Source: a virus. From it: a stretch of DNA of 64,000 nt. Below, in pieces: positions 8,859 through 24,789 of this stretch (its first letter is position 1; the number at the start of each line of letters is the position of its first letter). The notes under the pieces are model-generated. The model made no database searches and had not been told where the DNA came from. It worked only from the letters and a program-made list of their open reading frames with translations. The translations under genes and the position numbers were made by a program. The stretch is taken from IMG/VR virus record IMGVR_UViG_3300029362_000615. One strand, written 5' to 3'.

Positions 8859-10175
8859 ATGACTACCAACAATCCTATGACCGTAATAACCTCTAAGCCC
8901 TTCGGCGCACTGAATGTGGATGTGTACCAGAATGACAAGCACCAGTATTACATGACCCGTGAACAAATTGGTGCGGCGCTAGAGTACAATAATCCTAATA
9001 AGGCAATTCAAAACATCCATGTTAAGAATACGGATCGTCTTGACCCTCTTTCAACATTCCTCAAACTGAGGAAAGTTGAGGGCGGAATCACGAAGGAACG
9101 TGAATATATTGCTTACAGTTTGCGTGGTGTTATGGAAATCTGCCGTCTGTCACGTCAGCCGAAAGCAGATGCGTTCATGGATTTCTGCTGGGACATTATG
9201 GAATCTTTGATGCGTGGTGATTCCGTTCTGGCTACTCCTAAGATGGATGCTGCGTTGAGCAAGGAGTTTATTGACGTAAGACTTCACGCTCTGTTTGATA
9301 GCATGAAGAATCTTCAGAGCGAACTCAATTCTACTCGCAAAGATCTCAGTGAACAGATTGAGGAAGCCCGTGCTACCAGCAATGAAGCACTGAATGTGAT
9401 TAGTAGCGTATCTCAGTGTGTCCATCAGATTAAGGACAAGCAGATGGATGATGCGATTCGTTCTACCAGAAACTTCACTCCTCGTAAGGATGTGATGAGT
9501 GACTGGCGTAAGAAGATGTATGAACGTATCAATGTGATTGCGGAAATCAATGAGATGAAGGTTCAGGATGTGTTTCGTGATGTTTACGAATACATGAATC
9601 GTGTCTATACCTTTGTTATTGAGGAAGAACGTAGAAAGTATTGCGCAAGAACTGGTCGTACTGGTCATATTCCTACGATTGATGTGGTCGAGGCAAGCAA
9701 AATGTATAAGTCTATCTTTGGCGCTCTGGTTGAGGATCTGTATACTGAGGCAATCAATAAGAAGAAGGAAGAAGCTGTTGAACAGAAGGCTCTGCCTGAA
9801 GCTAAAGTTGTTGATGCAGCTCCTGAAGTAGATGTCTGTGTTGCTCCTGTGATTGATGTTGAAGCTAAGGAAGTTGAGTCTGAGCCGGTTGTGGAGGAAA
9901 AGCCCAAGAAGCAGAGCGAAACGGCAAAAATTCTTTTCCCCATTATGCTTCCTCTGGCAGAAAAACTTGGCGATAAGCCACAGTATAAGCACACTTATAC
10001 TCTGATTTACGAGTGTATTGGCTATAAGAAAATGAATAATTTGTTTGTGGCTTACGAAAAGGCACACGGTAAAGCACCGAATCCGAAGACTAAGGTGTTT
10101 ATTGAAAACGAAAAGAACCTCGCGCTGTTTAAGAAGACTGTGAAGCAGCTGATGAAGGAGCAGGAGAATAAGTAA
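8859..10175 (+). CDS. phage antirepressor-like protein with Bro-N/ORF6N-type N-terminal domain, a long coiled coil and an ORF6C-like C-terminal domain
   Basis: N-terminus FGALNVDVYQNDKHQYYMTREQIGAALEYNNPNKAIQNIH matches the Bro-N/ORF6N pattern. The central region is rich in heptads. Confidence 0.5.
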   Translation: MTTNNPMTVITSKPFGALNVDVYQNDKHQYYMTREQIGAALEYNNPNKAIQNIHVKNTDRLDPLSTFLKLRKVEGGITKEREYIAYSLRGVMEICRLSRQPKADAFMDFCWDIMESLMRGDSVLATPKMDAALSKEFIDVRLHALFDSMKNLQSELNSTRKDLSEQIEEARATSNEALNVISSVSQCVHQIKDKQMDDAIRSTRNFTPRKDVMSDWRKKMYERINVIAEINEMKVQDVFRDVYEYMNRVYTFVIEEERRKYCARTGRTGHIPTIDVVEASKMYKSIFGALVEDLYTEAINKKKEEAVEQKALPEAKVVDAAPEVDVCVAPVIDVEAKEVESEPVVEEKPKKQSETAKILFPIMLPLAEKLGDKPQYKHTYTLIYECIGYKKMNNLFVAYEKAHGKAPNPKTKVFIENEKNLALFKKTVKQLMKEQENK

Positions 10176-10796
10176 ATGTACGTAATATCGAATGGTCACA
10201 ACTATATTATGAAACGGAAGGGCGGTCGAATCTGCGCCACCTGTGATATCAATCTGGCTTTACAGTTTGAATCCAAGGGACTGGCGATTTGTGAGATCAA
10301 CAAGCTTCCCGCCGGGTATAAAAACGGGCACTACGCACCGAAGTCTATGGATGAAGCTACCATTGCAGGCAAGAGTCCGAATATAACGGCTCCGGCTGTA
10401 AAGTCAAATACATACGCATTTCACATGGAAGATTCTGAATGGCTGGCGGAACTTAAAAAGAATTTGGTTATCACAGATAAAACCATGTGTAATCTGAAAG
10501 AGATGTATTCAAAAGTGTACGGTGATTTGACTTCCGCAAGTGATGAGATTGATGATCTAGAACATGCTATTGAGTTTAAGACCGTGAATGCAGCGCAAGG
10601 TTATCAGCTTATGGCAGAGCTTAAAAAGGCTCGCCGGAAGCGTAGAGAAGCTAAGGACGCAAAGCTTTTGCTTGAGATCGTTATGAATACAGAAACCAGA
10701 GAATGGGGAGATGGCAAGCTAGAGACTGCTATTGAGCAGCTTGGTACTCGTCAATTTACTCCGAAGGTTCGTAATGATCTATTTGAAAAGAATTGA
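10176..10796 (+). CDS. hypothetical protein
   Basis: ORF track. Confidence 0.45.
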   Translation: MYVISNGHNYIMKRKGGRICATCDINLALQFESKGLAICEINKLPAGYKNGHYAPKSMDEATIAGKSPNITAPAVKSNTYAFHMEDSEWLAELKKNLVITDKTMCNLKEMYSKVYGDLTSASDEIDDLEHAIEFKTVNAAQGYQLMAELKKARRKRREAKDAKLLLEIVMNTETREWGDGKLETAIEQLGTRQFTPKVRNDLFEKN

Positions 10797-10808
10797 GGTA
10801 CATAAAAA

Positions 10809-11057
10809 ATGAAAGTCTATGTTTTACACGAATGCATTGATTCCAGTGACTTTTACGCAGAAGATAATGTGATTATGGTCACAAAGGATAGAGTCAAAGC
10901 AATTGATAAAATGGTATTCCTGTTTAATGAAAGCAAGAATGACCTACAGCCTGTAAGTAATGACGAGACATGGTGCGAAGCTGCGGAAGCATCTGTTGTT
11001 TGTAGTGGTGAAAGTTATTATCGTCACCACTGGAAGATTGATGAATTCGAGGTGTAA
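10809..11057 (+). CDS. hypothetical protein
   Basis: ORF track. Confidence 0.45.
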   Translation: MKVYVLHECIDSSDFYAEDNVIMVTKDRVKAIDKMVFLFNESKNDLQPVSNDETWCEAAEASVVCSGESYYRHHWKIDEFEV

Positions 11058-11060
11058 GGT

Positions 11061-11300
11061 ATGCCTACTATCAGAGGAAACGGACACTGTAAGGTTTGTG
11101 GTGCGCCGGCTGCTATAAATCATGAGTATTGTGATCATTGCCGCAGGATAGTAAGAATCGAAGCGCGACAGGCTTATGAAAGAAAGAGACGAGAACAGGA
11201 ACGAAGCAAAAAGCCAATCTTGACATTCAGCGATGTTATTAAACTTGCGGATGCCGAGGGATTGTCTTACGGAAAATACTGTTTAAAGTATGGGATTTGA
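11061..11300 (+). CDS. zinc-ribbon protein (CxxC...CxxC), possible DNA-binding accessory factor
   Basis: CKVCGAPAAINHEYCDHC. Immediately upstream of the recombinase gene. Confidence 0.4.
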   Translation: MPTIRGNGHCKVCGAPAAINHEYCDHCRRIVRIEARQAYERKRREQERSKKPILTFSDVIKLADAEGLSYGKYCLKYGI

Positions 11301-11310
11301 GGTGAATGTG

Positions 11311-12129
11311 ATGAGTGCAGTTGTTGAAAGAAAAGAAGAACAGATATCTAAATTGGTCTATTTTAATCCTAAACCTTCCGTTCCGGCGAAAAAGCGTGGT
11401 GTTACAAAAAGTAAGCAGAAGCGTAAGCGTAATATTTCTCCAATTAGAAGCTTGGATGATGTTCAAATGATTTCGGAATACTTCTGGGATAAAAAGCAAT
11501 ATCGCAATTGGTGTCTATTTAATGTCGGCATTGCAACTGGGTTGCGTGCTAGTGACTTGCTTAAATTGAAAGTTTCTGATATGTCTTACTGTCTTTATAA
11601 TGGAAAAATTGAGGTGGTTGAGGACGCAGGAACTTGCATCGTCGAAGAAAAGACTTCCAAATATCGTGAAATCATTCTTACTCCAGAAGCGAGAGACATC
11701 GTTGAAACGTACATTAAGATTGCAAATCTTGGATATGACGATTGGATGTTTCCGTCTCGGCAGGGGAGTTGGAAAAAGTCGTTGAGGACAAATGGTGGAG
11801 ATGGGAAAACTGGTATTCCTCATATTGCAGAACCCAAAAAAGCCGGTGATCCTATTGATGTTGATTCTTTTGCTCGTATCCTTCGTAATGCTGGTAGAGA
11901 TTTGAATCTTAATTATAAGATTGCGTCTCATTCTTGCCGTAAGACATTTGGTTATCGTGAGATGTGTCTTAATAAGGATGATAACCAGGCATTGTCTTGG
12001 ATTCAGGGTCAGTTGAATCATAGTAGTCAGGATATTACATTACGGTACGTTGGTTTTGATGAGGATAAGGCAAAAGAATATTATAAGAAGACTTTTTATG
12101 GTGTGAATACACACAGCTTGGAAGACTGA
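11311..12129 (+). CDS. tyrosine site-specific recombinase (small XerC/D-like phage integrase family)
   Basis: Catalytic signature GLRASDL (Arg), ...K..., HSCRKTF (His-x-x-Arg) and LNHSSQDITLRYV (Tyr). Confidence 0.7.
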   Translation: MSAVVERKEEQISKLVYFNPKPSVPAKKRGVTKSKQKRKRNISPIRSLDDVQMISEYFWDKKQYRNWCLFNVGIATGLRASDLLKLKVSDMSYCLYNGKIEVVEDAGTCIVEEKTSKYREIILTPEARDIVETYIKIANLGYDDWMFPSRQGSWKKSLRTNGGDGKTGIPHIAEPKKAGDPIDVDSFARILRNAGRDLNLNYKIASHSCRKTFGYREMCLNKDDNQALSWIQGQLNHSSQDITLRYVGFDEDKAKEYYKKTFYGVNTHSLED

Positions 12130-12134
12130 GGTGT

Positions 12135-12814
12135 ATGATGGCTGATACTTATATTAAGATCTGGGATACCTACGAGAGCTACTTTGAACCCCTTAGTGCT
12201 GCTGAGGTGGGGCGTCTGGTACTGGCGATGATGAAATACAAATCGTCTGGAACAGAGCCTGAACTCAACGGAAATGAGCGGTATGTGTGGCCCGCCGTGA
12301 AGAGAGATTTAGATAAAGATGCCGAATACATCGAAGGCAAGAGAATTTCTGGCAAAGCTGGTGGCTCATCAAGCAAGCGTAAGCAAAATGAAGCAAACGC
12401 AAGCAAAACCAAGCTAGAAAAAGAGAAAGAAAAGATAAGATATCGTCTTCGTCTTGTGATGAGACGACAACGACGAAACCTATCGAGGATGTTTTTCGAG
12501 AGAATATCGGGAAGCTTGGTGCTACTGGTCGAAAGGCTTTAGCAGAATATGTTGAGCGCATGGGTGATGAACTTGTACTTGCTGTGATTGGTAAGTGTTC
12601 TGATCTCGGCGGTAGCACATGGGCTTATGTGCGAAAAGCTCTGGATGAAGCAGAATCTCTTGGTTGCAAGACTGCTGATGACTATCGCCGGGCTTGTCCG
12701 ATAGGGAGTGGTCGTAATCTTAGAGTTGACAGAAAAGAATTCAGTGGCAACGATATCCTGAAAAACGCAACGAAACGTCGTCCACTAGTAAAAAGAGAGC
12801 TGGAAACAGCATAA
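12135..12814 (+). pseudogene. replisome organizer / DnaD-like replication initiation protein (DUF4373-like N-terminus plus DnaD C-terminal domain) interrupted by a frameshift
   Basis: Frame 0 through ~12417 ends GKAGGSSSKRKQNEANASK. Frame -1 from ~12419 reads PIEDVFRENIGKLGATGRKALAEYV...GGSTWAYVRKALDEAESLGCKT (DnaD domain). The shift sits at an A5 run at 12418-12422. Confidence 0.65.
12371..12420 (+). repeat. five tandem 10-bp iteron-like direct repeats AAGCAARNNN inside the replisome-organizer gene; candidate replication origin
   Basis: AAGCAAGCGT AAGCAAAATG AAGCAAACGC AAGCAAAACC AAGCTAGAAA, followed by an A-rich tract and the inverted repeat TCGTCTtgtgatgAGACGA. Confidence 0.5.
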
Positions 12815-12829
12815 ATGGAGGCTTGAATT

Positions 12830-13231
12830 ATGGGACTGTTACTTGGTTTGGGTTTACTTGGCGCAGCATTTGCGATTGATGGAGCAAAGCAAGCACCGTT
12901 TGATAAGGCGTATCGCCGTCTGGAAAACGAATGGGGGACTTGTACATCGGAAGAGAGTAAGCGGTGTGATGCTCTGAAGTATGCCGTGCAGAACGGTTTA
13001 TGTTTCGAGGATGAAAAGAAGCCTGTGATTGAGTGGCAGAAGCTGAGAGACCTTCAGTGGAAGTATCAGCTGGCTGGTATTTCTTGGCCGAGAGAATCTG
13101 CGATTCGAGATGTATGCCGGTTGGCAGCTCGTGACCGTGGATTTGAGTATAAAGGGTATCTGCGAAATACATTGACATTTGGTTATATCACTGATCCGAA
13201 AAACATTTGCAAGCTTGGCATTGTAGATTGA
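12830..13231 (+). CDS. hypothetical protein with hydrophobic N-terminus
   Basis: ORF track; MGLLLGLGLLGAAFA. Confidence 0.45.
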   Translation: MGLLLGLGLLGAAFAIDGAKQAPFDKAYRRLENEWGTCTSEESKRCDALKYAVQNGLCFEDEKKPVIEWQKLRDLQWKYQLAGISWPRESAIRDVCRLAARDRGFEYKGYLRNTLTFGYITDPKNICKLGIVD

Positions 13232-13245
13232 GAGGAGATTTGAAA

Positions 13246-13551
13246 ATGAATAACACTCGTAGAAAAGCTATTAAGCAGACCATTGACCGTTTTTGTTCCA
13301 TCCGTAAGAAGCTGGAAGAGCTTGTAGAAGAGGTCGAAAGTGTAAAGTCTGACGTTGAGGATATCCAGTTGGAAGAAGAAGAGTATCGTGATAATATGCC
13401 GGAGAACCTGCAGGGGAGTGAGCGGTATGATAAAGCGGATGAAGCTTGCACAAATCTGTCTGATGCTGTGGATGCTCTGGACGATATGATTAGTGATCTT
13501 GATTTGGATATTGATAGTGTGACTACTTCTTTGGAGGAAGCGATGGAATGA
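13246..13551 (+). CDS. highly acidic coiled-coil protein (DNA-mimic candidate)
   Basis: Internal ATG of track ORF 13207..13551. About one third D/E. Confidence 0.45.
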   Translation: MNNTRRKAIKQTIDRFCSIRKKLEELVEEVESVKSDVEDIQLEEEEYRDNMPENLQGSERYDKADEACTNLSDAVDALDDMISDLDLDIDSVTTSLEEAME

Positions 13552-13736
13552 TTAAGGCCACGTATCCATTGAAAAGAAATGCGTGGGCTGTGTTCTTGTA
13601 CAGAGGTAGGCAAGTTTGTTCATACCTACTGCGTAATAGCAATCTTGGGGACAAAGAACGCATGGTAGAGCTGCTGGCACGAAGGTATATGACAGAGCCT
13701 GAGAATATTGTTGTAGATATTGAATTTAGAGATTGA
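13548..13736 (+). CDS. hypothetical protein
   Basis: ORF track. Confidence 0.4.
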   Translation: MIKATYPLKRNAWAVFLYRGRQVCSYLLRNSNLGDKERMVELLARRYMTEPENIVVDIEFRD

Positions 13737-13747
13737 GGTGATAAAGA

Positions 13748-13822
13748 ATGACCGCGTTTGTAATGTTTACTTTCAATGTGGCACTGATAATAGCAGTGAA
13801 TAGTAATCCGTTTGCGTTTTAA
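13748..13822 (+). CDS. putative 24-aa hydrophobic peptide
   Basis: Hand-translated MTAFVMFTFNVALIIAVNSNPFAF. Weak RBS. Confidence 0.2.
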   Translation: MTAFVMFTFNVALIIAVNSNPFAF

Positions 13823-13836
13823 GTGGAGGCATGAAT

Positions 13837-14064
13837 ATGAAAGAACTGGAAGAAATTTACAATCGATTATATGATGAATACATTGACGCTAGACGAGAGC
13901 ATATTAAGTCTAGTCTCGATATGAAAAAGAATGGTGACAGAATATATTTACATGGAAAAATGCATGGGTTAGAAATTGCTATTAGCATCGTCGATGAAGT
14001 GCTCGAAAGGGTTAAGGCAGAATATACCAAGGAAGCTTTTGACGTAGACCCATATAAAACCTAA
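13837..14064 (+). CDS. hypothetical protein
   Basis: Second ATG of track ORF 13831..14064, 7 nt after GGAGG. Confidence 0.45.
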   Translation: MKELEEIYNRLYDEYIDARREHIKSSLDMKKNGDRIYLHGKMHGLEIAISIVDEVLERVKAEYTKEAFDVDPYKT

Positions 14065-14081
14065 ATTCTGTGGAGGTAAAT

Positions 14082-14345
14082 ATGAGATATACAAAGCGTG
14101 AAATCATTAGCGCGTATCGGATTCTCACGAAGAATATTCAGCAAAATGATCTTGGCTGGCGTGGAAAAATGATTTTAAGTGATGTACTTGATGACTATTT
14201 CAGCCGTATTGAGGGTGAAATAGTTGTTGTAGATCCAAAGTGTGGAAGTTTTCGTTGTCCAAAATGCAACACGGTAATTACAAGTAGGTATGATCACTAT
14301 TGCAGAGATTGTGGTCAGAAGTTTGATTGGAGAGAAACAAGATGA
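14082..14345 (+). CDS. zinc-ribbon protein
   Basis: CGSFRCPKCN...CRDCGQ. Confidence 0.45.
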   Translation: MRYTKREIISAYRILTKNIQQNDLGWRGKMILSDVLDDYFSRIEGEIVVVDPKCGSFRCPKCNTVITSRYDHYCRDCGQKFDWRETR

Positions 14346-14554
14346 AGATTGATTTGACTCTCAATGAAGCACGAGTTATCCAAGATGCGCTTGATGCGAC
14401 GAGCCTGTGCCGTTCTGGATGCTACATGGGTTACAAGAGTGGTGATGAGGATTTGTGTTTCAAACTTGATAAGGATGGAAATTATCGCTGTAAGCTGATG
14501 CGAGAAATTGATTCCATCAATGGCAAGATTGAGAATGCAATGGACGGAAAGTAA
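14342..14554 (+). CDS. hypothetical protein
   Basis: ATG overlapping upstream stop. Confidence 0.4.
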   Translation: MKIDLTLNEARVIQDALDATSLCRSGCYMGYKSGDEDLCFKLDKDGNYRCKLMREIDSINGKIENAMDGK

Positions 14555-14744
14555 TAAAATCCGGGTTCTTGTGGATATTTAACAAAAGGATGTGTGGACC
14601 GATGATATAACTATTGATGACGTAGGATTATTAGTAAAATTTTGGTAATTTTGATAATTGTGTTGAATAATCTCTTTGTGCGGTGTATGCTTGAGACAAC
14701 CTCAATACAAGATGGTCAAGCCAAAAGAATGTGAGGTTAATATA
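14555..14744 (+). promoter_or_regulatory. 190-nt AT-rich intergenic region with TTGAyr/TAAT repeats; probable promoter cluster for the accessory island
   Basis: Contains TTGAAT-17nt-TATGCT and several TTGATA/TTGACG boxes. Confidence 0.35.
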
Positions 14745-14879
14745 ATGTGGATTATGATAATTTTACTTATGGTATTGGATGCCGTGTACGCACTTAGTCT
14801 GTTAGGAGCGCTTTCCGATGCCGATGATCAGAGTGGGCGGCTGGAAATGAAACAGGGAAGGAATGGTCGAAATGGATAA
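14745..14879 (+). CDS. small membrane protein (44 aa; single TM)
   Basis: MWIMIILLMVLDAVYALSLLGAL. GAGG RBS 8 nt upstream. Confidence 0.4.
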   Translation: MWIMIILLMVLDAVYALSLLGALSDADDQSGRLEMKQGRNGRNG

Positions 14880-15102
14880 TTTGAAACCGTGTCCATTTTG
14901 CGGTGGAGAAGTTACCATTGCAGAGGGCGGTTATCGCCAAACACGATGGATGTATGTTACGAGAGGAAACAAAGAAAATAGGTGCAACTGCTATGTTATC
15001 ATGGAAAGCAAAACTTACGACTTTGATTCCTCTGAAATGGAAAAAGCAAAAATTAAAGCCGATCTTATCGAAGCATGGAATAAACGGATTTATAAAAGTT
15101 AA
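14872..15102 (+). CDS. lar: Lar-family restriction alleviation protein
   Basis: MDNLKPCPFCGG...CNCYV...IEAWNKR matches the Lar family signature (KPCPFCGG N-terminus, C-terminal AWNRR). Confidence 0.55.
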   Translation: MDNLKPCPFCGGEVTIAEGGYRQTRWMYVTRGNKENRCNCYVIMESKTYDFDSSEMEKAKIKADLIEAWNKRIYKS

Positions 15103-15120
15103 GATTTAGGAGAGTTTTAT

Positions 15121-15369
15121 ATGATTGCTACAGAGTTAATTAAGATTTTGGAAAAGCTACCAAGTGATGTTTTTATCGAAACGGATAGCGGCTGGGAATG
15201 TGATGCAACGGAGGTGAATGCTGCTTATTATAGCAGTCAAAAAAATGTTTTGGTTTTAACATGGAAACCGCAGGGAAACTATAAATATTACGAGGAATCT
15301 CCAAAATGGGAGTGTGTGTTCTGCGATGTAGACAGTCATTCCCCGGTAGTGCTACATTCTGATTTTTGA
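15121..15369 (+). CDS. hypothetical protein
   Basis: ORF track. Confidence 0.45.
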   Translation: MIATELIKILEKLPSDVFIETDSGWECDATEVNAAYYSSQKNVLVLTWKPQGNYKYYEESPKWECVFCDVDSHSPVVLHSDF

Positions 15370-15397
15370 TAGAAGCTGAGATTTAAAGAGAATGCCT

Positions 15398-15742
15398 ATG
15401 AGAATAAAAGTTGGAGATAGAGTTTACGATAAAGTATCTCAACGATACGGTATCGTGAAAAAATTTGTTGGCGAAGATTTTGTTGGAATGTTCTATGTAA
15501 AAGCCGACTGTTCCGAGGAAAGCGAATGGCGATTTCCAGAAGATATTGAATTGGCAGATTCTTCAGAAAAAGATAGCCGTGATTCTAATTCTGTGAAAAT
15601 AATTTGTTGCAAGGATTGTGAACTTTGGAATACATGGGGCAAGAAAGGAGAATCATGCAGCTGCGCTCATTTTACTCTTGATAATTCCAATGCTGTATAT
15701 ACCAAGCCAGAGGATTTTTGTAGTTATGCAGAAAAACGATAA
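15398..15742 (+). CDS. hypothetical Cys-rich protein
   Basis: CCKDCELWNTWGKKGESCSCAHF. Confidence 0.45.
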   Translation: MRIKVGDRVYDKVSQRYGIVKKFVGEDFVGMFYVKADCSEESEWRFPEDIELADSSEKDSRDSNSVKIICCKDCELWNTWGKKGESCSCAHFTLDNSNAVYTKPEDFCSYAEKR

Positions 15743-15769: not shown

Positions 15770-16522
15770 ATGACAAGAAATGAATTGCTTGGAGCGTTAT
15801 GCTTCCCAGAATACAATTTCATTCGAGAGAATGAACATCTTGGCAAGCATATGATGTTCGTAACGGTCGGTGGCAGCCACGCTTATGGAACAAATGTTGA
15901 GGGTTCAGATCTTGACATCCGTGGTGTGGCATTAAATTCAAGAGAAGACCTTCTTGGTCTTGGCGAGTTTGAACATTATGTGGATACTCAAACTGATACT
16001 ACAATCTACAGCTTTAATAAGGCTGTGAAGCTAATGTGTAGTGGAAATCCTAATATGCTGGAGCAGCTAGGGAACGCCGATGAACTCGTTATTAGCTATA
16101 GTCCAATGACAAAGTTACTTATGGATAATAAAAAGCTGTTCCTGTCGAGGCGTGTAATCTATTCGTTTGGCGGTTTTGCAGGTAAGCTGATTCAGAAGGC
16201 TGATACGCTGGATAAAGATCCAATTTATCATGGTTCAAAGAAAATGCACAAGACGGTGATGAATGCAATTCGTGTATACCTGATGCTCTTTGACATCTTA
16301 GAAAAAGGTGAAATTAAAACTTATCGAGATAACGATCATAACTTCCTGACGCAGCTTCGCAACGGTGAATATGATTACAAAGAGATTCGTCAGCAACTGA
16401 TTCCGGCCTATGAAAGCAGATTGTCAGTTGACAAGAGTGAGACTTACCTGCCGGACAATGTTGATTGGAAGCGGGTCAACGAGCTTGTAATAACCGTAAA
16501 TGAGGAATCGTTGAAGATTTGA
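15770..16522 (+). CDS. Pol-beta-superfamily nucleotidyltransferase (COG3541/PF10127-like)
   Basis: GSHAYGTNVEGSDLDIRGV, i.e. the hG[GS]...D.D NTase signature. Confidence 0.5.
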   Translation: MTRNELLGALCFPEYNFIRENEHLGKHMMFVTVGGSHAYGTNVEGSDLDIRGVALNSREDLLGLGEFEHYVDTQTDTTIYSFNKAVKLMCSGNPNMLEQLGNADELVISYSPMTKLLMDNKKLFLSRRVIYSFGGFAGKLIQKADTLDKDPIYHGSKKMHKTVMNAIRVYLMLFDILEKGEIKTYRDNDHNFLTQLRNGEYDYKEIRQQLIPAYESRLSVDKSETYLPDNVDWKRVNELVITVNEESLKI

Positions 16523-16546
16523 TAAAACCAATATTTTTGAAAGGAA

Positions 16547-17173
16547 GTGATTCTTATTAACTCTAATTTGTTAATAAATCGTGAGCAAAGTATTGCTATT
16601 GTGTGTATAATGTGCCTGCTGGCGGGGAATCTTGTATCGAAGATCAGTCCGGTAATTCAGAATCATGGTGATTCATACCTTTATAATAATAGCCCTCCGG
16701 CAGTGAGTGTAGTGCAGCAAGAGGAAAAGGAGCCAGAAGTCATTGTAGAAACCGTTACTGAGATGCGGATTGTAAACTTTGGTCAGGGCAAACATAAACT
16801 CACTGATGACGAACGTGCTCTTGCGGAGCAGATCGTTGCTTGTGAAGCAGGTGCTGACAGTTTGGAAGGCCAGATGGCTGTGGCCCAATGCCTTTATGAT
16901 TCCGCTGTACTTGATAGTCTAACCATCCAGCAGGTCTTTAAGAAGTATGGTTATAGTTCCTTATATAATAGGAAGGTGACGGCAGAGAACGAACTGGCTG
17001 TGTCTATGGTGTTTGATTACGGCGCTAAGATTTCAGACAAACCTATTCAATGGTTTGTAACCCCGGCGGCTGCTCCAGGCAGTTGGCACGAGCGCGGAGC
17101 AACCTTTGCTGGACAATTTGGCGCACACAGGTTTTATTATGACGCGAAGCTGGTTGTGGATGATGCTGAGTAA
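16547..17173 (+). CDS. membrane-anchored SleB-like cell-wall hydrolase (Hydrolase_2 domain)
   Basis: N-terminal TM segment. C-terminus LAEQIVACEAGADSLEGQMAVAQCLYDS...FAGQFGAHRFY resembles the SleB/CwlJ family. GTG start. Confidence 0.55.
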   Translation: MILINSNLLINREQSIAIVCIMCLLAGNLVSKISPVIQNHGDSYLYNNSPPAVSVVQQEEKEPEVIVETVTEMRIVNFGQGKHKLTDDERALAEQIVACEAGADSLEGQMAVAQCLYDSAVLDSLTIQQVFKKYGYSSLYNRKVTAENELAVSMVFDYGAKISDKPIQWFVTPAAAPGSWHERGATFAGQFGAHRFYYDAKLVVDDAE

Positions 17174-17228
17174 ATGGCATCATCTAAAATTTTGATAAAG
17201 CAGCACAACAAAATGGTGTGGTACATAT

Positions 17229-17262
17229 TGACGAAAACAAAAAGATGTGTATAATATATCTT
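17229..17262 (+). promoter_or_regulatory. sigma-70-type promoter TTGACG-16/17-TATAAT
   Basis: ttgacgaaaacaaaaagatgtgtataatat, upstream of gene 17298. Confidence 0.45.
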
Positions 17263-17297
17263 GGAAGTTGTTTATGTGATCGGAAGGCGGTATTTCG

Positions 17298-17624
17298 ATG
17301 AGTGAGAAAAAGGTTTTGGGAGTTATACAGGTTGAGAACTTTTTGAAGTACATAAGAAAAAAGCGAGTGTGGGTCTGTTTTATTTGCAATGGTGTGGATG
17401 TTCACATGATCTGCAAAAAGATGGACGACATTGGCGTAGAGACGCATGGGATTGTCAAAGGCATTGGATTTTTTGGAAACGAAAGTCATATTGAGTTGCG
17501 GCAAGAATGTCACGAAGTAAGGAGGGTTGAGTTTAGGCCGGGCGATAAAGAGAAAGCGTATGAGATGATATTCGATAACACCAGCGTGTTCGTATCAGAG
17601 AATCCAGAGTTGTACGGGCACTAA
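17298..17624 (+). CDS. hypothetical protein
   Basis: ORF track. Confidence 0.45.
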   Translation: MSEKKVLGVIQVENFLKYIRKKRVWVCFICNGVDVHMICKKMDDIGVETHGIVKGIGFFGNESHIELRQECHEVRRVEFRPGDKEKAYEMIFDNTSVFVSENPELYGH

Positions 17625-17644
17625 AAATATTTTTGAAAACCTAT

Positions 17645-17680
17645 TGACTTCTGTAAAGGTATCCTGTATAATATAGCTAT
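17645..17680 (+). promoter_or_regulatory. near-consensus promoter TTGACT-16/17-TATAAT embedded in a reverse-orientation copy of the 23-bp element GGTATCCTGTATAATATAGCTAT
   Basis: Directly upstream of mazF-like gene. Identical 23-mer at 42431-42453. Confidence 0.6.
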
Positions 17681-17715
17681 GGAACGGAGCTACACTATTA
17701 TAGAGGAGAAAGACT

Positions 17716-18135
17716 ATGGACAACAATATTGACCCAAAGGTCGGAGAGGTTTGGTTGGTTGATCTATCCAATGCGACAGGTCATCAGCAGCGCGGTATTC
17801 GACCGTTCGTTGTGACGAGCAACAATAAGCGCAACTTCTTTAGTCCAACAATTAAAGGGAATCCGTTGTCTTCCAGAATATACAAGCGCTCTCCGGTTCA
17901 TGTTCTACTCTCAAAGGAAGATTGTGATTTCCTAGAGGTTGATAGTATCGTTCTATGTGAAGAGACTGATACACTTAACAAAGGACAGTTCATTAAAAAA
18001 CTTGGTGTCTTGTCGGAGCGTCAGATGAATATGATCGCAATGGCAAGATGCAAGGATGAACCGTTTTTGCTTGCAGCATTCCTGAGCGGCGTACAACATA
18101 CCATGGAATTTCAGAATTTTGCCGCATTTGCTTGA
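17716..18135 (+). CDS. mazF: MazF/PemK-family endoribonuclease toxin (type II TA toxin fold), no adjacent antitoxin
   Basis: GEVWLVDLSNATGHQQRGIRPFVVTS...SPTIKGNP...DSIVLCEETDTLNKGQFIKKLGVLSERQMNMI matches the MazF/Kid consensus. Confidence 0.7.
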   Translation: MDNNIDPKVGEVWLVDLSNATGHQQRGIRPFVVTSNNKRNFFSPTIKGNPLSSRIYKRSPVHVLLSKEDCDFLEVDSIVLCEETDTLNKGQFIKKLGVLSERQMNMIAMARCKDEPFLLAAFLSGVQHTMEFQNFAAFA

Positions 18136-18188
18136 TTTTTTATAAGGTTTAATGGTACACTACATATAATAAGAAGGAGTGTGCCACT

Positions 18189-19115
18189 ATGCTTACTGAA
18201 GAAAAAATCAAAGCTTTTGCCGAAAAGTATTCTGATAGAAGCGGTGAGTTTGTTGCATCGACGATGCGTCACGTCATGGATTACGAGGCCGAGCGTGGGT
18301 ATGAGTTGTTTGACTTCACAAAAGATGATTTCGTAAAGATGTTTGCCAAATATAATTGGGTGAATTCGAGTCGTTCGTTTAAAAATGTGAAGTCAATAAT
18401 CACAGGCTACATCAAAAGTGAAAACGAAACAAGCATGTATGATCTGGCTGACTTTTCAGAGAGCGATGTAAGCGCAGATGATATGTACAATGACAGTTAT
18501 TTTGCGTCGGTTGACGAATTTGTTGACTTCTTAAATAAGTACGAAGAGCCATATCAGATTCGTATGAACGTAATTGCTGTTTTGTACTGGATTGGTCTTA
18601 CTTCCGATGAGATTTCTAATCTAACAATTAACGATGTGGATTTTGAATCTAATACCGTTCTTGATAAGACTGATGTTGACGCAAGGTTAATGGATATTAT
18701 CAAGCAATGTTACGAGATGAAACAGTATGATGCCCCCAATAAGAGCGGTTATAGAACATTTTATGTCATGAATGGCGATTATATCCTACGCAAAACGAAG
18801 GATAAACCCGGTGTAAACAGTGATCCAAAGACGTCTATAATTTCAATTCATGTCTATTTTTCGAGGTTGAACGATATCCTCGAAAAAAGGCATCATTCAA
18901 AAACCTTAGATCAAAGATATTTAGCCAGAAATTGTGAGTATATCAAGGTTTATAACTACTGTAAAACTCATCCAAAATTTAATCTTGCAGAACTTAGTTT
19001 CGGAAATGGTAAAGGTCCTCTTGCGGACATTATCGGAAGAAAGTGCAGTAAAGTTGCCTATCTTAGTTTCCGGCAAGGATATAAAGGTTGGGTTGAATAT
19101 TTCCATGAAAATTAA
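18189..19115 (+). CDS. tyrosine-recombinase-like protein, possibly degenerate (box I Arg replaced)
   Basis: RMNVIAVLYWIGLTSDEISNLTINDVDF resembles integrase box I but has Thr instead of Arg. No clean H-x-x-R motif. Confidence 0.3.
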   Translation: MLTEEKIKAFAEKYSDRSGEFVASTMRHVMDYEAERGYELFDFTKDDFVKMFAKYNWVNSSRSFKNVKSIITGYIKSENETSMYDLADFSESDVSADDMYNDSYFASVDEFVDFLNKYEEPYQIRMNVIAVLYWIGLTSDEISNLTINDVDFESNTVLDKTDVDARLMDIIKQCYEMKQYDAPNKSGYRTFYVMNGDYILRKTKDKPGVNSDPKTSIISIHVYFSRLNDILEKRHHSKTLDQRYLARNCEYIKVYNYCKTHPKFNLAELSFGNGKGPLADIIGRKCSKVAYLSFRQGYKGWVEYFHEN

Positions 19116-19120
19116 AAACA

Positions 19121-19144
19121 GGGGGCTTCGGCCCCTTCATTTTA
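19121..19144 (+). terminator. Rho-independent terminator (GGGGC-TTCG-GCCCC + TTCATTTT)
   Basis: GC stem with UUCG tetraloop and T-tract immediately after the 19115 stop. Confidence 0.7.
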
Positions 19145-19150
19145 ACATGC

Positions 19151-19172
19151 TAACTATATAACACAGGATACC
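19151..19172 (+). promoter_or_regulatory. 22-bp conserved promoter/operator element (forward) TAACTATATAACACAGGATACC
   Basis: One of 5 forward copies located 20-30 nt upstream of gene starts. Confidence 0.5.
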
Positions 19173-19186
19173 TATTAGAAAGGGAG

Positions 19187-21406
19187 ATGCAGATGAGAAC
19201 ACTTTTACTGTTCCGTGGAGCACCCGGTTGCGGGAAGTCCACCTATATTAAAGAGCATAATCTTGAGCAGTACGTATTGAGTGCTGATACACTTCGCCTT
19301 ATGTGCCAGAGCGCACAGGAAACACCTGATGGGCAGATGGAGATTTCTCCGCAGAATGATGATGTTGTATGGGAGATGCTTTTCAAACTGCTTGAGGTGC
19401 GGATGAGCCATGGCGAGTTTACTGTGATTGATGCAACGAATTCCAAGACGGTCGAAATGAATTGTTATAAGAATCTTGCAAAACAGTATCGTTATCGGAT
19501 GTATGTTATTGATATGACGGACCTTCCGATCGAGGAATGCAAACGAAGAAACGCTCAGAGAGAATGGCTAAAGCGAGTTCCTGAAGCGGCTATTGATAAG
19601 ATGTACGCTCGGTTTGCTACTCAAAAAGTTCCTTCTGGCGTGACAGTTCTTCCTTCTACTACGGATGTGATGTCCGATTTGAACTACTGCCCGAATGACT
19701 TTAACCAGTGGAAAAAGATACATATCATCGGTGATATTCATGGCTGCTATACCTGCTTGAGTGAATACCTTGGTGAGATGAAGGACGACGAGCTTTATAT
19801 CTTCGTTGGTGATTATCTCGATCGTGGCATCGAAAACGTTGAGGTATTCAAGTTCTTGTGTGATGTTGTAAATAACAACCGCAAGAATGTGATCCTTTTG
19901 GAAGGGAACCACGAGCATTGGCTGAACAAGTGGGGGCATGATAAACCGGTTCAAAGTGAAGAGTTTGCAAACTACACTCGTCCGCAGCTCTTTAAAGCCG
20001 GTATTGACAAGAACACTGCTCGTAAGATCTATTCCAGAGTCGGCCAGTGTGTCTACTTTGAGTATGATGGTAAGCGGTATTTCGTAAGTCACGGTGGTCT
20101 GAGCTATCTTCCTTATTTTCTTCCGTTCGTGTCTGCGGATCAGATGATTAAAGGCGTAGGCCGCTATCCTGATATACTGACCGTGGCTGAGTCTTGGGAA
20201 AAGTCGATGCCGGATAGCTATATTCAGATCTTCGGCCATCGAAATGTACAGGATGTTCCTATTGATATGGGTCATCGGTGCTACAATCTTGAAGGCAAAA
20301 TCGAGTTTGGTGGATATCTTCGTTGTGTGGAGCTTGAACACGGTCAGCCTATCAAATGCGTAGAAACCAAGAATGATGTATTCCGAAAAGAGGAGCCAAA
20401 GACTGAAACTGCCGTTGAAATGAAAACTGAGTTCGATAACGCAGAACTTGTTAGTAAGATGCGTCAAAGCAAATATGTGTTTGAGAAGCGATTCGGAGAT
20501 ATTTCTTCTTTCAACTTCTCTCGTGAAGCATTTTATAAGAAGCACTGGGATGAGGTTTCTACCAAAGCAAGAGGGTTGTTCATTAACACAAAGACGAATA
20601 AGATTGTAGCTCGAAGCTATGATAAGTTCTTTGCGGTTGATGAGCGGAATGAAACGAGAATTGGAAACCTACAGAACACTTTGAAGTTCCCGGTGACTGC
20701 ATATCTAAAAGAGAACGGATTTCTTGGTATCATTTCGTATGATGCAGAACAGGATGGTCTGTTCATTGCAAGTAAATCCACTCCTGATGGGCCTTTTGCA
20801 GATATGTTCCGAAAGATTCTCATGGATACGACTTCTGATGAAGATCGTAAGAATCTGAAAGAAGTTGCAAAAGAGAATGGCTCCATCATCTTCGAGGTGA
20901 TTGATCCTGTGAATGATGCACATATCATCGAATATAAGAAACCGCACATTGTTTTGCTGGATATTATTGCAAATGATATGAATTTCAGTGTAATGGATTA
21001 TGATGATTTGAAGCGTGTAGCCGAGAAGTGTCATCTGCAGATTAAGGAGAAGGTTAAAACCTTTGAGAACTGGAGTGAATTCTATCCTTGGTACGAAGAA
21101 GTCATGAACGAGAACTATCTGCATCATGGTTTTGAACACGTTGAAGGCTTTGTTTTGCGAGACAGCAATAATTTCATGTTTAAGCTGAAGCTTCTGTATT
21201 ATAAGCACTGGAAGTTCTTGCGTGGTGTCATGCAGAGCGTTCAAAAACGTGGCTATTATGAAAATACCGCAAAGTTGTTTACTGCCGAGGATAACCTGTT
21301 CTATGGTTGGATGCGTGAACAACGAGAGAAAGATCAAGAGTCTTTCTGCAAGAAGGGTATTATTCAGCTGCGGAATGAGTTCTACGCAAGTCAGCAGAAG
21401 AGCTAA
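19187..21406 (+). CDS. pnkp: bacterial-type polynucleotide kinase-phosphatase-ligase (Pnkp) RNA/DNA end-healing and sealing enzyme
   Basis: N-terminal P-loop GAPGCGKST, a central calcineurin-like phosphatase (GDIHG, GDYLDRG, GNHE), and a C-terminal nucleotidyltransferase with KENG lysine motif. Second ATG at 19193 has better RBS spacing. Confidence 0.7.
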   Translation: MQMRTLLLFRGAPGCGKSTYIKEHNLEQYVLSADTLRLMCQSAQETPDGQMEISPQNDDVVWEMLFKLLEVRMSHGEFTVIDATNSKTVEMNCYKNLAKQYRYRMYVIDMTDLPIEECKRRNAQREWLKRVPEAAIDKMYARFATQKVPSGVTVLPSTTDVMSDLNYCPNDFNQWKKIHIIGDIHGCYTCLSEYLGEMKDDELYIFVGDYLDRGIENVEVFKFLCDVVNNNRKNVILLEGNHEHWLNKWGHDKPVQSEEFANYTRPQLFKAGIDKNTARKIYSRVGQCVYFEYDGKRYFVSHGGLSYLPYFLPFVSADQMIKGVGRYPDILTVAESWEKSMPDSYIQIFGHRNVQDVPIDMGHRCYNLEGKIEFGGYLRCVELEHGQPIKCVETKNDVFRKEEPKTETAVEMKTEFDNAELVSKMRQSKYVFEKRFGDISSFNFSREAFYKKHWDEVSTKARGLFINTKTNKIVARSYDKFFAVDERNETRIGNLQNTLKFPVTAYLKENGFLGIISYDAEQDGLFIASKSTPDGPFADMFRKILMDTTSDEDRKNLKEVAKENGSIIFEVIDPVNDAHIIEYKKPHIVLLDIIANDMNFSVMDYDDLKRVAEKCHLQIKEKVKTFENWSEFYPWYEEVMNENYLHHGFEHVEGFVLRDSNNFMFKLKLLYYKHWKFLRGVMQSVQKRGYYENTAKLFTAEDNLFYGWMREQREKDQESFCKKGIIQLRNEFYASQQKS

Positions 21407-21523: not shown

Positions 21524-21608
21524 GGGGATATGGTGAAATTGGCAGCCACGCTTGATTCAAACTCAAGTGTCGAAAGACGTATCGGTTCAAATCCGATTAT
21601 CCCTACCA
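21524..21608 (+). tRNA. tRNA-Leu (anticodon CAA), type II with long variable arm, CCA encoded
   Basis: Acceptor GGGGATA/TATCCCT, anticodon loop TTCAAAC, T-loop GGTTCAAATCC. Confidence 0.8.
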
Positions 21609-21808
21609 TGAAGATCAGTTGTTCTAGCTCGTTCGGGGATTGGCCGTACATTGGCGACCGGAAAGACGTCATACCGGTAAAGGACGTCAAGCCAGACAAG
21701 AAGAGAAATAAGGTGTAAGCCGACTAGCTATCGGATAAATACTCTTCGATTCGCCAGAAAACTAGAATGTAAAACGAATGGTTGGCTGTTTCTGATCTTC
21801 TTTTATAT

Positions 21809-21891
21809 GCGCCCGTGGTGGAATCGCAGACACAGGAGACTTAAGATCTTCTGCCAGAGATGGCGTGCGGGTTCAAGTCCCGCCGGGCGCA
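21809..21891 (+). tRNA. tRNA-Leu (anticodon TAA), type II, no encoded CCA
   Basis: Acceptor GCGCCCG/CGGGCGC, anticodon loop CTTAAGA, T-loop GGGTTCAAGTCCC. Confidence 0.8.
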
Positions 21892-21898
21892 TTTGTAT

Positions 21899-21974
21899 CT
21901 GGGCGTAGCGAAGTTGGTATCGCACCTGTTTTGGGAACAGGGGACCGCAAGTTCAAACCTTGTCGCTCAGACCA
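21899..21974 (+). tRNA. tRNA-Pro (anticodon TGG), CCA encoded
   Basis: C1-G72 acceptor pair, anticodon loop TTTGGGA, T-loop AGTTCAAAC. Confidence 0.8.
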
Positions 21975-22061
21975 GCCCGAAAGGGCAAGGAAAAATTGTC
22001 CTCACATTATTCCCGGCTCTCTGGAAACGGAGCAGTGTGACGTAGTAAGCTGGGTATATGA

Positions 22062-22132
22062 TGCGCCATCGCCAAGCGGTAAGGCAGAGGACTTTGACTC
22101 CTCCATCGCAGGTTCGACCCCTGCTGGCGCAA
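22062..22132 (+). tRNA. tRNA-Gln (anticodon TTG), U1-A72 first pair
   Basis: Acceptor TGCGCCA/TGGCGCA, D-arm GCCAAGCGGTAAGGC, anticodon loop CTTTGAC, T-loop GGTTCGACC. Confidence 0.8.
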
Positions 22133-22135
22133 TAT

Positions 22136-22217
22136 GCGGATATGGTGGAATGGCAGACACGCCAGATTTAGGATCTGGTGCTTCGGCGTGTGGGTTCGAT
22201 GCCCACTATCCGCACCA
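22136..22217 (+). tRNA. tRNA-Leu (anticodon TAG), type II, CCA encoded
   Basis: Acceptor GCGGATA/TATCCGC, anticodon loop TTTAGGA, T-loop GGGTTCGATGCCC. Confidence 0.8.
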
Positions 22218-22316
22218 CGGTCATAGAATGGTTGCGTACCGTTTGTTGATCTCCTTTACTATTATTCCCAGCTCGCTCGTAAGAGTGCAGTAGTGCTTTG
22301 TAAGCTGGGTTTACAT

Positions 22317-22391
22317 GCAGCGGTCGTATAACGGTTAGTACATCAGCCTTCCAAGCTGAGGATGAGGTTTCGACTACCTTTCGCTGCTCCA
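22317..22391 (+). tRNA. tRNA-Gly (anticodon TCC), CCA encoded
   Basis: Acceptor GCAGCGG/TCGCTGC, anticodon loop CTTCCAA, T-loop GGTTTCGACTACC. Confidence 0.8.
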
Positions 22392-22581
22392 ATTTCGTAT
22401 GGGTAGGGATTTTAAGCGGTCAGTCCCGGCCGCGCCTGTGCGAAATACCACCCTGAAAGGGGCGAGATATAGGAAATGTGCATCGCTGTTATTCCTTCCT
22501 CGTCTATATGATATAGATGCAATAGTGTTTTATAAGGAAGGTGCCCAGTTGAATAGTTGCAGCTGTTTAACTGGTTTTTAT

Positions 22582-22658
22582 GGGATAGTAGCTCAGCTGG
22601 TCAGAGCTGGCGGCTCATAACCGCTTGGTCGGGAGTTCAAATCTCTCCTGTCCCACCA
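22582..22658 (+). tRNA. tRNA-Met or tRNA-Ile2 (anticodon CAT), elongator type, CCA encoded
   Basis: Acceptor GGGATAG/CTGTCCC with G1-C72 pair, anticodon loop CTCATAA, T-loop GGGAGTTCAAATCTCTC. Confidence 0.8.
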
Positions 22659-22793: not shown

Positions 22794-24789
22794 ATGAAAA
22801 CTGAAGCATTACGGAGATATTACACAACTTCATGGGTGGCAGATTGAACCGGTTTCCTGTATCACAGGAGGCAGTCCATGCCAAGATTTGAGTCAGGCCG
22901 GTAAACGTGAAGGTTTGGCTGGTGAACGCTCTGGATTGTTCCTTGAAATGATTCGTGTGATTACAGAAATGAGGGAGGCCACTAATGGAGAATATCCAAA
23001 ATTCGCAATCTGGGAAAATGTCAGAGGAGCTTTCAGCTCAAGCAAAGGTGAAGACTTCAGATGTGTGTTGGAAAGATTTGCACGCATTGTCGAGCCAGAC
23101 GTTTCAATTCCTCGACCTTCAGGGAAGAACGGAAAGTGGGCAAAATCTGGAGCGATTTCCGGTAATGGATGGTCTCTTGCATGGAGATTGTTCGACGCTA
23201 AATACTGGGGAGTCGCCCAGCGTCGCCAGAGAATCGCGCTTGTCATGGATTTTGGAGGACAACGTGCCTCAGAAATTCTATTTGAGCGCACGAGCATGTC
23301 AGGGGATTCTTGTGAGAGCATCCCGGCGTGGAAAACCTTTGCCCGAACTCCTGAAACAAGCGTTGCTGGATATGATCGAATGGTGGAATCCAGGAACTCT
23401 GTCACAGGTGGTGCAGAAAGTGAAGGAACAAGAAGGTCTGGAAGAGAAGGAATTGGACGAGTATTGGAGTCAGACCATCGAGAGACTTCGACTCAATGCA
23501 CAGAACCTGCAGCCTACACTCTAAAAATCCGTTCTGGATGTGAAGGTGGCGGTAAAGGCGCTCTGGTTCAAACTGAATTGAGCGCAACGATTTCTACGTT
23601 ACAAGACCAGACGCTGATTTGCTTGGCAGAAAATCCCTCCTTACATAATTTAAAACAAAAGATTTCGCCGGTGGTGTTTGAGAGCCACAGTCAGGACGCT
23701 CGATACACTCAGCAGAGTGATACAAGTCCGACTTGTACTGCTCAGTGGGGAACTGGTGGCAATAATATGCCACTGGTCATTGAGAAGAAAGCCTTTGCGA
23801 TGCAACGCATTGGTGAATACAAGGAAAGTGAACAGGCTAGTACGATGAAATCTCGTGACTACAAGGACGCTACTGACCTGATTACAGAAAAAGAATCGAA
23901 GAATCTACGATGGATTGTTCGCCGTTTGACTCCTTTGGAGGATGAACGGCTTCAGGGGTTTCCTGAAATTATGGAGGCAAATATTACAGAAATGACAAAA
24001 GATGAATATATTGCTTTCAACTTAGCTACGGGTCAGATTATCGCAGATTGTGAGAATGGAAAAGTGTATACCACAAAAGGTCCCGGCGGAAACATTCTTA
24101 AAGAACCAAAAGAACTTAGTGGGACAATTATTAAAGGTTATCGAGTTGTTAGCATCCGAAATGGTGATGTAAAAAAGCAATGTAGGGTTCATCGAGTTAT
24201 ATGGATTGCTAAAAATGGAATTATTCCAGATGGTCTGGTTGTTGACCATATCAATAACGACAAGCTAGATAATCGAATTAGTAACCTTCAGCTATTAACC
24301 GCAAAGGACAACTCTACTAAAGCTTCAAAGGATGGCCTGTATTTATCTGGAAATGAAAACCCTGTGACAGTTCTTCCAGAAGAAAAACGTATTGAAGTAG
24401 CACTTATGTATCAAACAGGAGAATTTACAATGCGCCAGCTTGCTGAAAGATACGGAATCAGTAAAAGCCGTGTCCAGCAAATTGTAAAAACATATGGATG
24501 GACCGATATTGGCGAGTGGATTGACGAGAATGGTAAAAAGCACAAGCCAGCCGATTCTCCTCGGTACAAGGCGCTCGGCAATTCGATTGCTTTGCCTCAG
24601 TGGTATTGGATTTGCCAGAAGATGAAACCGTATATTGGTGAAAATCCTACGCTTGGCAGTCTTTTCGATGGAATCGGTGGCTTTCCGCTTGTCTTTGAAA
24701 GTACGTATGGTGATGGTACTGCTATCTGGGGATCTGAAATTGAACCGTTTTGTGTTGCGGTGACAAAGAAGCATTTTCCAGAAGATTAA
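22794..24789 (+). CDS. cytosine-5 DNA methyltransferase with circularly permuted motif order (III-IV-VI-VIII-TRD-IX-[HNH+HTH insertion]-X-I-II); apparent 1-nt frameshift after the ATG
   Basis: Motifs GDITQ, GGSPCQ, ENV, QRRQRIALV, RRLTPLEDERLQGFPE, YKALGNSIA, then LFDGIGGF and SEIEP..KHFPE at the C-terminus. ATG 22794 is in frame only if one A of the A4 run at 22797-22800 is removed. The long ORF in the given sequence runs 22798-24789. Confidence 0.6.
24136..24312 (+). other. HNH (HNH_3-type) endonuclease domain inserted in-frame between methyltransferase motifs IX and X, followed by a helix-turn-helix segment to about 24558
   Basis: GYRVVSIRNGDVKKQCRVHRVIWIAKNGIIPDGLVVDHINNDKLDNRISNLQLLTAKDN, then LPEEKRIEVALMYQTGEFTMRQLAERYGISKSRVQQIV. 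Confidence 0.65.

Follow-up and report, generated by a model that had tools for sequence, protein, structure and literature searches.

The origin of phage lambda lies in the middle of gene O and comprises iterons and an AT-rich tract (PMC7466680), oriL of SPP1 lies inside gene 38, where direct repeats together with an AT-rich unwinding element are bound by G38P (PMC6316719), and TP901-1 ORF13 and Tuc2009 Rep2009 bind direct repeats in the very genes that encode them (PMC8965321). Here we analyse a stretch of 64,000 nucleotides from the virus record IMGVR_UViG_3300029362_000615 (this whole stretch is called the window, and all coordinates are positions in it), in which the replication-initiator gene of a large gut phage (about 130 kb) occupies nt 12138–12814. 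The gene encodes a replisome organizer with an N-terminal DUF6291 domain and a DnaD-like C-terminal domain, and its nt 12371–12473 carry a 10-bp-phased repeat array, an A-rich tract and an inverted repeat. Since this three-part layout in linker-coding DNA matches experimentally proven origins, we consider it rather likely that nt 12371–12473 are an embedded phage origin of the lambda/SPP1/TP901-1 type or the major part of one. An earlier note, made from the letters of this DNA alone, had already recognized iterons inside the initiator gene as a known phage-origin architecture, and at the level of layout the analogy to lambda O, SPP1 gene 38 and TP901-1 ORF13 holds.

With the lambda origin, and also with the origins of Stx phages, the locus shares the position in the middle of the initiator gene, with iterons beside an AT-rich tract, which in lambda lie between an origin-binding N-terminal and a recruiting C-terminal half. 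In lambda, however, each iteron has internal symmetry and a length of about 19 bp, with a spacing of about two helical turns, whereas here cores of 5–6 bp recur once per turn; moreover, the protein has no sequence or fold relation to O, and in place of a P-binding C-terminal domain it has a DnaD-like one. A further feature of lambda is a palindrome on the far side of the AT-rich tract. Among the organizers of Firmicute phages, i.e. G38P of SPP1 with oriL and the P335 organizers TP901-1 ORF13, Tuc2009 Rep2009 and r1t ORF11, repeats in the organizer's own gene likewise lie beside an AT-rich element, and a DnaD/DnaB_2-type C-terminal domain is common, as it is here. In contrast to these proteins, the organizer here begins with DUF6291, for which no similarity to their N-terminal domains was detected, and the phage has about 130 kb and its own PolIII-alpha, RecD2, RecJ and ligase. 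Bacillus subtilis DnaD has an alike C-terminal domain by profile and fold, but its winged-helix N-terminal domain is replaced here by the helical DUF6291, and the DnaD gene has no embedded origin. In function, the locus would belong to a known class, origins that lie inside initiator genes; what is new is the assignment of the DUF6291 family with its helically phased linker repeats to this class, as well as the recurrent natural breakage of the gene at the element itself.

Domain structure of the organizer protein

The N-terminal domain (aa 1–75, nt 12138–12362) matches Pfam DUF6291 (PF19808) with 39.0 bits against a gathering cut-off of 27.2 (E = 9.2e-10, residues 13–81). The label DUF4373, under which it had been described before, has to be given up, as DUF4373 produced no Pfam match at E ≤ 1 with any of three constructs. 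For the C-terminal domain, both sequence profile and fold match solved DnaD C-terminal domains (8ojj, 2zc2, 2i5u), in agreement with a DnaD-like domain (Pfam DnaB_2, PF07261), as the earlier note had proposed for this two-domain organizer; the protein also matches PHROG 186 and 2562. In the AF2 model, two confident domains formed by residues 1–75 and 118–190 (pLDDT above 90) are joined by a disordered and compositionally biased linker of ~40 residues (76–117, pLDDT about 50). This linker maps to about nt 12363–12480, so that, by this model, the array, the A-rich tract and the inverted repeat all fall into linker-coding DNA.

The DUF6291 family has at least 1,497 representatives of 50%-identity clusters that match at E ≤ 0.001. 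A search of the literature library used found no paper mentioning it; BLASTN against GenBank phages gave no match and TBLASTN only metagenomic fragments with no cultured-phage homologue, and a scan of GTDB genomes gave a single distant match, in a metagenome-assembled genome of a rumen Clostridiales. This uncharacterised domain gains a testable proposed function as part of a phage replication initiator with its origin in linker-coding DNA. Most N-terminal domains of the family (P0121–P0270; L294–L373) end with G-K/R-K-G-G-R-P-K-K, in which basic residues surround a GRP motif resembling an AT-hook, directly before the iteron-coding DNA; in the window this motif is degenerate (GKAGGSSSKRK).

A helically phased repeat array in linker-coding DNA

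The array of candidate iterons, i.e. putative initiator-binding sites, occupies nt 12371–12416 on the plus strand and consists of five units in 10-bp phase, with AAGCAA exactly repeated at 12371, 12381, 12391 and 12401 and AAGCTA at 12411. This confirms the five 10-bp repeats listed in the earlier note, and Tandem Repeats Finder reports a period of 10 with 4.5 copies as well as a period of 20 with a score of 62. The pattern AAGCAAN4AAGCAA, with at most one mismatch, occurs only in the array within the entire window (4 hits versus 0.77 expected), and none of 100 shuffles reached 4. Because the 10-bp period runs through all three reading frames, it cannot stem from a peptide repeat.

Conservation in related phages, the lack of which would have spoken against the earlier note, was indeed found: the AAGCA cores are invariant and the spacers variable in an alignment of 15 relatives, and homologues with 44–46% protein identity, from phages of about 40 kb, carry five to seven AAGCA units at exactly 10-bp spacing in the same place. 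Among 58 unique close relatives, pairwise synonymous diversity is 0.058 over nt 12369–12480 versus 0.17 gene-wide, a value as low as which was seen in none of 10,000 random codon sets and which ranks second among 185 contiguous windows, with a minimum of 0.025 over nt 12429–12464; amino-acid diversity over nt 12369–12480, on the other hand, is higher than in the folded domains. Within the motifs, even Ala, Ser and Thr codons, with their four-fold or six-fold degeneracy, are almost invariant. The 10-bp repeats thus behave as a conserved DNA element and not as a by-product of coding.

The same arrangement recurs across the family. A scan of IMG/VR for AAGCAAN4AAGCAAN4AAGCAA, which is unbiased by homology, returned 80 loci; the N-terminal domain was present in the open reading frame (ORF) spanning the motif in 39 of 81 cases, with the array located just behind the domain, 245–420 nt past the ORF start, and about 22 of these 39 represent divergent lineages with various C-terminal domains. 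Among the 80 AAGCA spacings that the search pattern did not impose, 49 are exactly 10 bp and 56 are multiples of 10. In a second survey, 37 lineages were ascertained by homology of the N-terminal domain only and the 170 nt after the domain were inspected. At least three identical 5-mers with a period of exactly 10 bp were present in 18 of these 37 lineages versus 0 of 787 control windows, and no such chains appeared at periods of 9 or 11. The phased 5-mers themselves differ between lineages (AACCC, AACCA, AACCT, AACCG, ATCAG, CCAGT, CGATA and AAGCA). Phasing of the linker repeats is therefore a family-wide property, and the DNA itself is under selection. In one relative, whose N-terminal domain differs, CAACC takes the place of AAGCA at 10-bp spacing, a single contrast (L083/L090) and only an anecdote.

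The A-rich tract and the inverted repeat

The array is adjoined at nt 12414–12443 (plus strand) by an A-rich purine tract, a candidate DNA unwinding element built from the hexamer units GAAAAA, GAGAAA, GAAAA and GATAAG and encoding EK repeats. The tract has 77% A+T and contains an all-purine run of 20 nt (12416–12435), and the duplex stability of this 30-mer, −31.1 kcal/mol versus a window mean of −38.0 ± 3.0, places it among the least stable 0.66% of all 30-mers in the window. Relatives differ in how many 6-nt units they have, and in most lineages an array is followed by such an A-rich hexamer microsatellite, e.g. (AAAGAC)n, (GAACAA)n or (GATAAT)n, in place of the GAAAAA/GAGAAA units seen here. 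The microsatellite in turn is often followed by a GC-rich hairpin such as TATCCCCTAACGGGGATA or TCCCACCTGACGGTGGGA.

In the window, an inverted repeat follows at nt 12443–12473. Its existence had been noticed earlier, with a position (12446–12465) that proved to be about 3 nt off: the core stem is formed by TCGTCT (12449–12454) and AGACGA (12462–12467) around a 7-nt loop (tgtgatg), and the arms extend to 12443–12454 and 12462–12473 with 83% complementarity in a region that encodes SSSSCDETTTT. The hairpin folds with −7.5 kcal/mol as DNA (z = −1.98) and with −12.6 kcal/mol as RNA (z = −1.7). Among relatives the stem is kept and the loop is variable, and a stem of at least 6 bp is found downstream of the array in 13 of 24 lineages versus 17% of control windows. 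Short repeats phased at 10 bp, an A-rich hexamer tract and a hairpin could thus provide a simple rule for finding candidate origins in uncultured gut phages.

Split reading frames and the site of the frameshift

ORF calls and translations show one gene in two frames on the plus strand (12135–12814), a split that the earlier note had correctly described. The first half (frame A) runs from an ATG at 12135 or 12138 to a stop at 12540–12542 and encodes a product of 134 aa, MADTYIKIWDTYESYFEPLSAAEVGRL...GKAGGSSSKRKQNEANASKTKLEKEKEK followed by an Arg-rich tail, i.e. the 36 out-of-frame codons (IRYRL... from 12435) that come after the frameshift. The second half (frame B, −1 relative to frame A) covers 12434–12814 with its stop at 12812–12814; this frame is open from 12392, following a TGA at 12389–12391, and encodes ...DKISSSSCDETTTTKPIEDVFRENIGKLGATGRKALAEYVERMGDELVLAVIGKCSDLGGSTWAYVRKALDEAESLGCKTADDYRR..., which after the frameshift begins with DKISSSS... 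and continues into the DnaD-like domain (coding ~12476–12700) and a tail up to the stop. Over the entire open stretch from 12392, frame B has no start codon upstream of an ATG at 12560, and an intact C-terminal domain therefore cannot be translated alone from the window allele. What this allele yields is the N-terminal domain with the linker and a junk tail (134 aa), and no translatable intact C-terminal domain. In annotation, such a gene can readily be mis-called as a pair of ORFs and its break be taken for a sequencing error.

From the window sequence by itself, the frameshift can be placed only somewhere within the stretch that is open in both frames. The earlier note had located it in the A5 run at 12418–12422, just at the boundary between iterons and A-rich tract, and had named six A residues in raw reads at this position as the sign of a simple sequencing error. 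Neither the position nor the error was confirmed. A DNA alignment with 14 relative loci shows that the intact relatives have the very same A5 run at 12418–12422 and that the difference lies 8–12 nt beyond it, where the window has GAAAAGATAAG and the relatives have GAAAAAGATAAG. The true site is thus 12430–12433 (plus strand), inside the A-rich tract, with the window reading GAAAAGAT (A4) and intact relatives reading GAAAAAGAT (A5; alignments A1 and A2). When one A is restored, a single-frame protein of 226 aa results that contains the relatives' ...LEKEKEKDKISSSS..., and a search with this fused protein sequence retrieved hundreds of single-frame homologues of 220–231 aa with 84–97% identity. 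A single-frame match is present in all 80 of 80 IMG/VR relative loci, 79 of which read through as intact ORFs. A census of run lengths over all fetched loci gave A5 in 149 and A3 (GAGAAAGAT, in frame) in 10, with A4 restricted to the window's own lineage (L081) and one other (L290).

The exact 134-aa product together with the exact 84-aa downstream ORF occurs on 16 public contigs (JGI, Logan, ENA), 11 of which are 0.2–1 Mb long, and a Logan contig from SRR5056929, which represents the window's lineage, is 100% identical to window positions 9138–15542 (6405 nt). The frameshift is therefore not a read error. The A-rich tract has lost one A from its A5 run, and the resulting allele is genuine and inherited.

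Recurrent natural breakage at the element

This is not the only break. The second A4 lineage (L290, DRR162288) has lost an A from the A5 run independently, on a background with an extra GAGAAA unit. A third allele, represented by 24 contigs from several samples, lacks exactly 20 bp, i.e. two iteron units, and is split into a 94-aa N-terminal part and a 159-aa ORF with the whole C-terminal domain. In a relative with this deletion (L291, 1682–2161), the 3' end of the N-domain coding sequence contains an out-of-frame ATG that opens the 159-aa ORF, which includes the complete linker and the C-terminal domain; the two halves could hence be produced as separate proteins from this allele. Many public calls in the cluster of the 134-aa product (P0272–P0285) end within the iteron/A-tract region, with lengths of 76–104 aa on dozens of contigs. 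Some of these probably arose where strain variation in the repeats ended a contig, and P0272 and P0286 look like further frameshifts by iteron slippage.

The 20-bp allele is the product of slippage between iterons, and the lost A lies within the hexamer/A-run microsatellite of the presumed unwinding element. Together with the variation in 6-nt units, this indicates that it is the cis element that makes the gene fragile; recurrent breakage by slippage in natural populations would thus be the price for a repeat-rich cis element that overlaps a reading frame. The genes flanking the split organizer gene are intact and the A4 allele is found on contigs of up to 545 kb, which is in keeping with a prophage that is inherited passively and whose initiator is null or leaky. 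The consequence of the lost A would be either a null or strongly reduced initiator in such a prophage, or low-level −1 slippage at GAA-AAG, which would restore the exact wild-type protein.

A far-reaching and rather improbable idea is that the initiator is naturally switched on and off, or set in its ratio of forms, by the slippery repeats in the origin. Alleles with A4 or A5 as well as iteron deletions would then alter the balance between full-length organizer and a form with the N-terminal domain only, with the −1 slippage at GAA-AAG being aided by the hairpin 8 nt downstream. If so, the N-domain-only form in combination with the retained iterons could keep a prophage replication-silent, or shut out related superinfecting phages by titration, similar to Per, the phage-encoded resistance effect of cloned lactococcal phage origins.

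A probable embedded origin and alternative explanations

As a working model for origin function, initiator molecules, most plausibly through their N-terminal domains, would line up at the iterons on one face of the helix with one molecule per turn. When bound, they would distort the DNA and open the adjacent A-rich tract, and the DnaD-like domain would then recruit the machinery for helicase loading and priming. Embedded origins have at least three to four direct repeats inside the initiator coding sequence and an AT-rich element of low stability next to them, and here there are five AAGCA(A) units with the tract at 12414–12443 beside them. By the AF2 model, these elements are also placed in a linker between the N- and C-terminal parts, of which the latter is DnaD-like and the former is without support from a DNA-binding fold. 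DnaA boxes are not involved in the candidate origin, with 18 in the window versus 20.9 expected and none in the element. Some findings, however, speak against origin function. The A-rich tract is short (about 30 bp), and the stability of the hairpin is only moderate (z about −2). The N-terminal domain, which would have to bind the DNA, is small and helical, with no recognisable DNA-binding fold and no significant neighbour among the solved structures in the PDB. The peptide signature of AAGCAA is not clustered by similarity of the N-terminal domains (6 nearest-neighbour pairs versus 3.6 expected, p = 0.17), so that this test gave no significant co-variation of initiators and iterons. Furthermore, GC skew stays positive over the entire window and nowhere changes sign, which gives no direct indication of a replication start here; with all window genes on the plus strand, GC and AT skew are both uninformative about an origin. 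Finally, split alleles persist in many contigs, which suggests that the intact protein is not always required.

This persistence would also suit the view that the repeats are cis-acting protein-binding sites other than an origin, i.e. autoregulatory operators or handcuffing, incompatibility or partition-like sites of a phage-plasmid. Conservation at the DNA level and helical phasing show binding of a protein to one face and not initiation, and with two tyrosine recombinases the phage could be plasmid-like; nevertheless, we regard this as unlikely, because the layout of iterons, A-rich tract and hairpin in a gene with a DnaD-like domain matches proven phage origins and no partition genes are seen adjacent. 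That the repeats have no cis function at all, but are a by-product of a low-complexity K/Q/S/A/N/E linker plus slippage, gains some appeal from the disorder and biased composition of the linker and from changes in array copy number by slippage. It is highly improbable, however, in view of the exact 10-bp phase across all three frames, the invariant synonymous sites and the family-wide phasing with different motifs that is absent at periods 9 and 11; the comparison with 787 control windows has already largely refuted it. The inverted repeat (12+7+12 bp), on its part, could be the core site of the tyrosine recombinase encoded upstream (11290–12129), e.g. for multimer resolution, as its geometry resembles recombinase core sites, it is highly conserved, and all relatives in the large-phage group share the recombinase gene in synteny. 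Yet the stem TCGTCT/AGACGA stays the same beside recombinases that are 97% or about 48% identical, AAGCA arrays and hairpins occur also in lineages with no adjacent recombinase, and the gene is contiguous here, so that the site is not a used attP, all of which makes this role very doubtful.

With respect to the frameshift, an A-run followed by a hairpin recalls a programmed −1 ribosomal frameshift cassette, by which A5 alleles would produce the full-length protein as well as a truncated N-domain form (with a stop two codons after the slip) and A4 alleles mostly the truncated form with some full-length protein. A −1 slip of the Lys tRNA from AAG (12432–12434) onto AAA would indeed restore the exact wild-type ...EKEKEK-DKISSSS, the RNA hairpin (−12.6 kcal/mol) starts 8 nt downstream of this AAG, the strongest synonymous constraint of the gene is found in this stretch, and the A4 allele arose twice. 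There is, however, no canonical X XXY YYZ heptamer, with the zero-frame codons being AAA GAA AAG in the window and GAA AAA GAT in relatives, and only the Lys codon can re-pair, since GAA onto AGA in the P site is poor. In addition, the ten related loci with GAGAAAGAT have a run of A3 only, the hairpin is weak (z = −1.7), with no compensatory changes or covariation available for its stem, and the 20-bp deletion allele would need +1 rather than −1 frameshifting. Programmed frameshifting is thus quite improbable. An intact gene disguised by a sequencing or assembly artefact is scarcely credible: homopolymer runs are typical sites of error and the IMG/VR relatives are intact (80 of 80, with 79 read through as ORFs), but the exact 134-aa and 84-aa products come from 16 contigs of three sources, an independent Logan assembly is identical over 6405 nt, and a run of four or five A is short for a systematic error.

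Genomic surroundings

Tyrosine-recombinase-like genes are located at 11290–12129, directly upstream of the organizer gene, and at 18189–19115; the upstream one exists in two variants among relatives, with about 97% and about 48% identity. The reading of the array as a set of recombinase arm sites was rejected, as arrays occur also where no recombinase is adjacent. A scan for promoters and terminators between 11 and 14 kb gave hits at chance level.

A group of genes for RNA repair and a toxin (15770–21406) encodes an RlaP-like nucleotidyltransferase (15770–16522), a MazF/PemK-type toxin (17716–18135) and a fusion of a Pnkp-like kinase and phosphatase with a T4 Rnl1-type RNA ligase (19187–21406). 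It is located just upstream of a cluster of seven tRNA genes on the plus strand (21524–22658; Leu-CAA, Leu-TAA, Pro-TGG, Gln-TTG, Leu-TAG, Gly-TCC and Met-CAT) and may counter cleavage of tRNAs by the host; an Rfam scan found nothing but these seven tRNAs. An ORF at 22888–24789 combines a fragment of a C5 cytosine DNA methylase (aa 1–65, corresponding to profile positions 74–131 only) with HNH_3 endonuclease and helix-turn-helix (HTH) domains, and may be a methylase gene that a homing endonuclease has disrupted or remodelled. A module for replication and nucleotide metabolism (27671–50921) comprises an AAA_24 ATPase, a primase-like protein with a weak DNAG_N match, RecJ, a DnaE-like PolIII-alpha of 988 aa, RecD2, an ATP-dependent DNA ligase, ThyX and NrdD, and FolD is encoded at 62648–63475.

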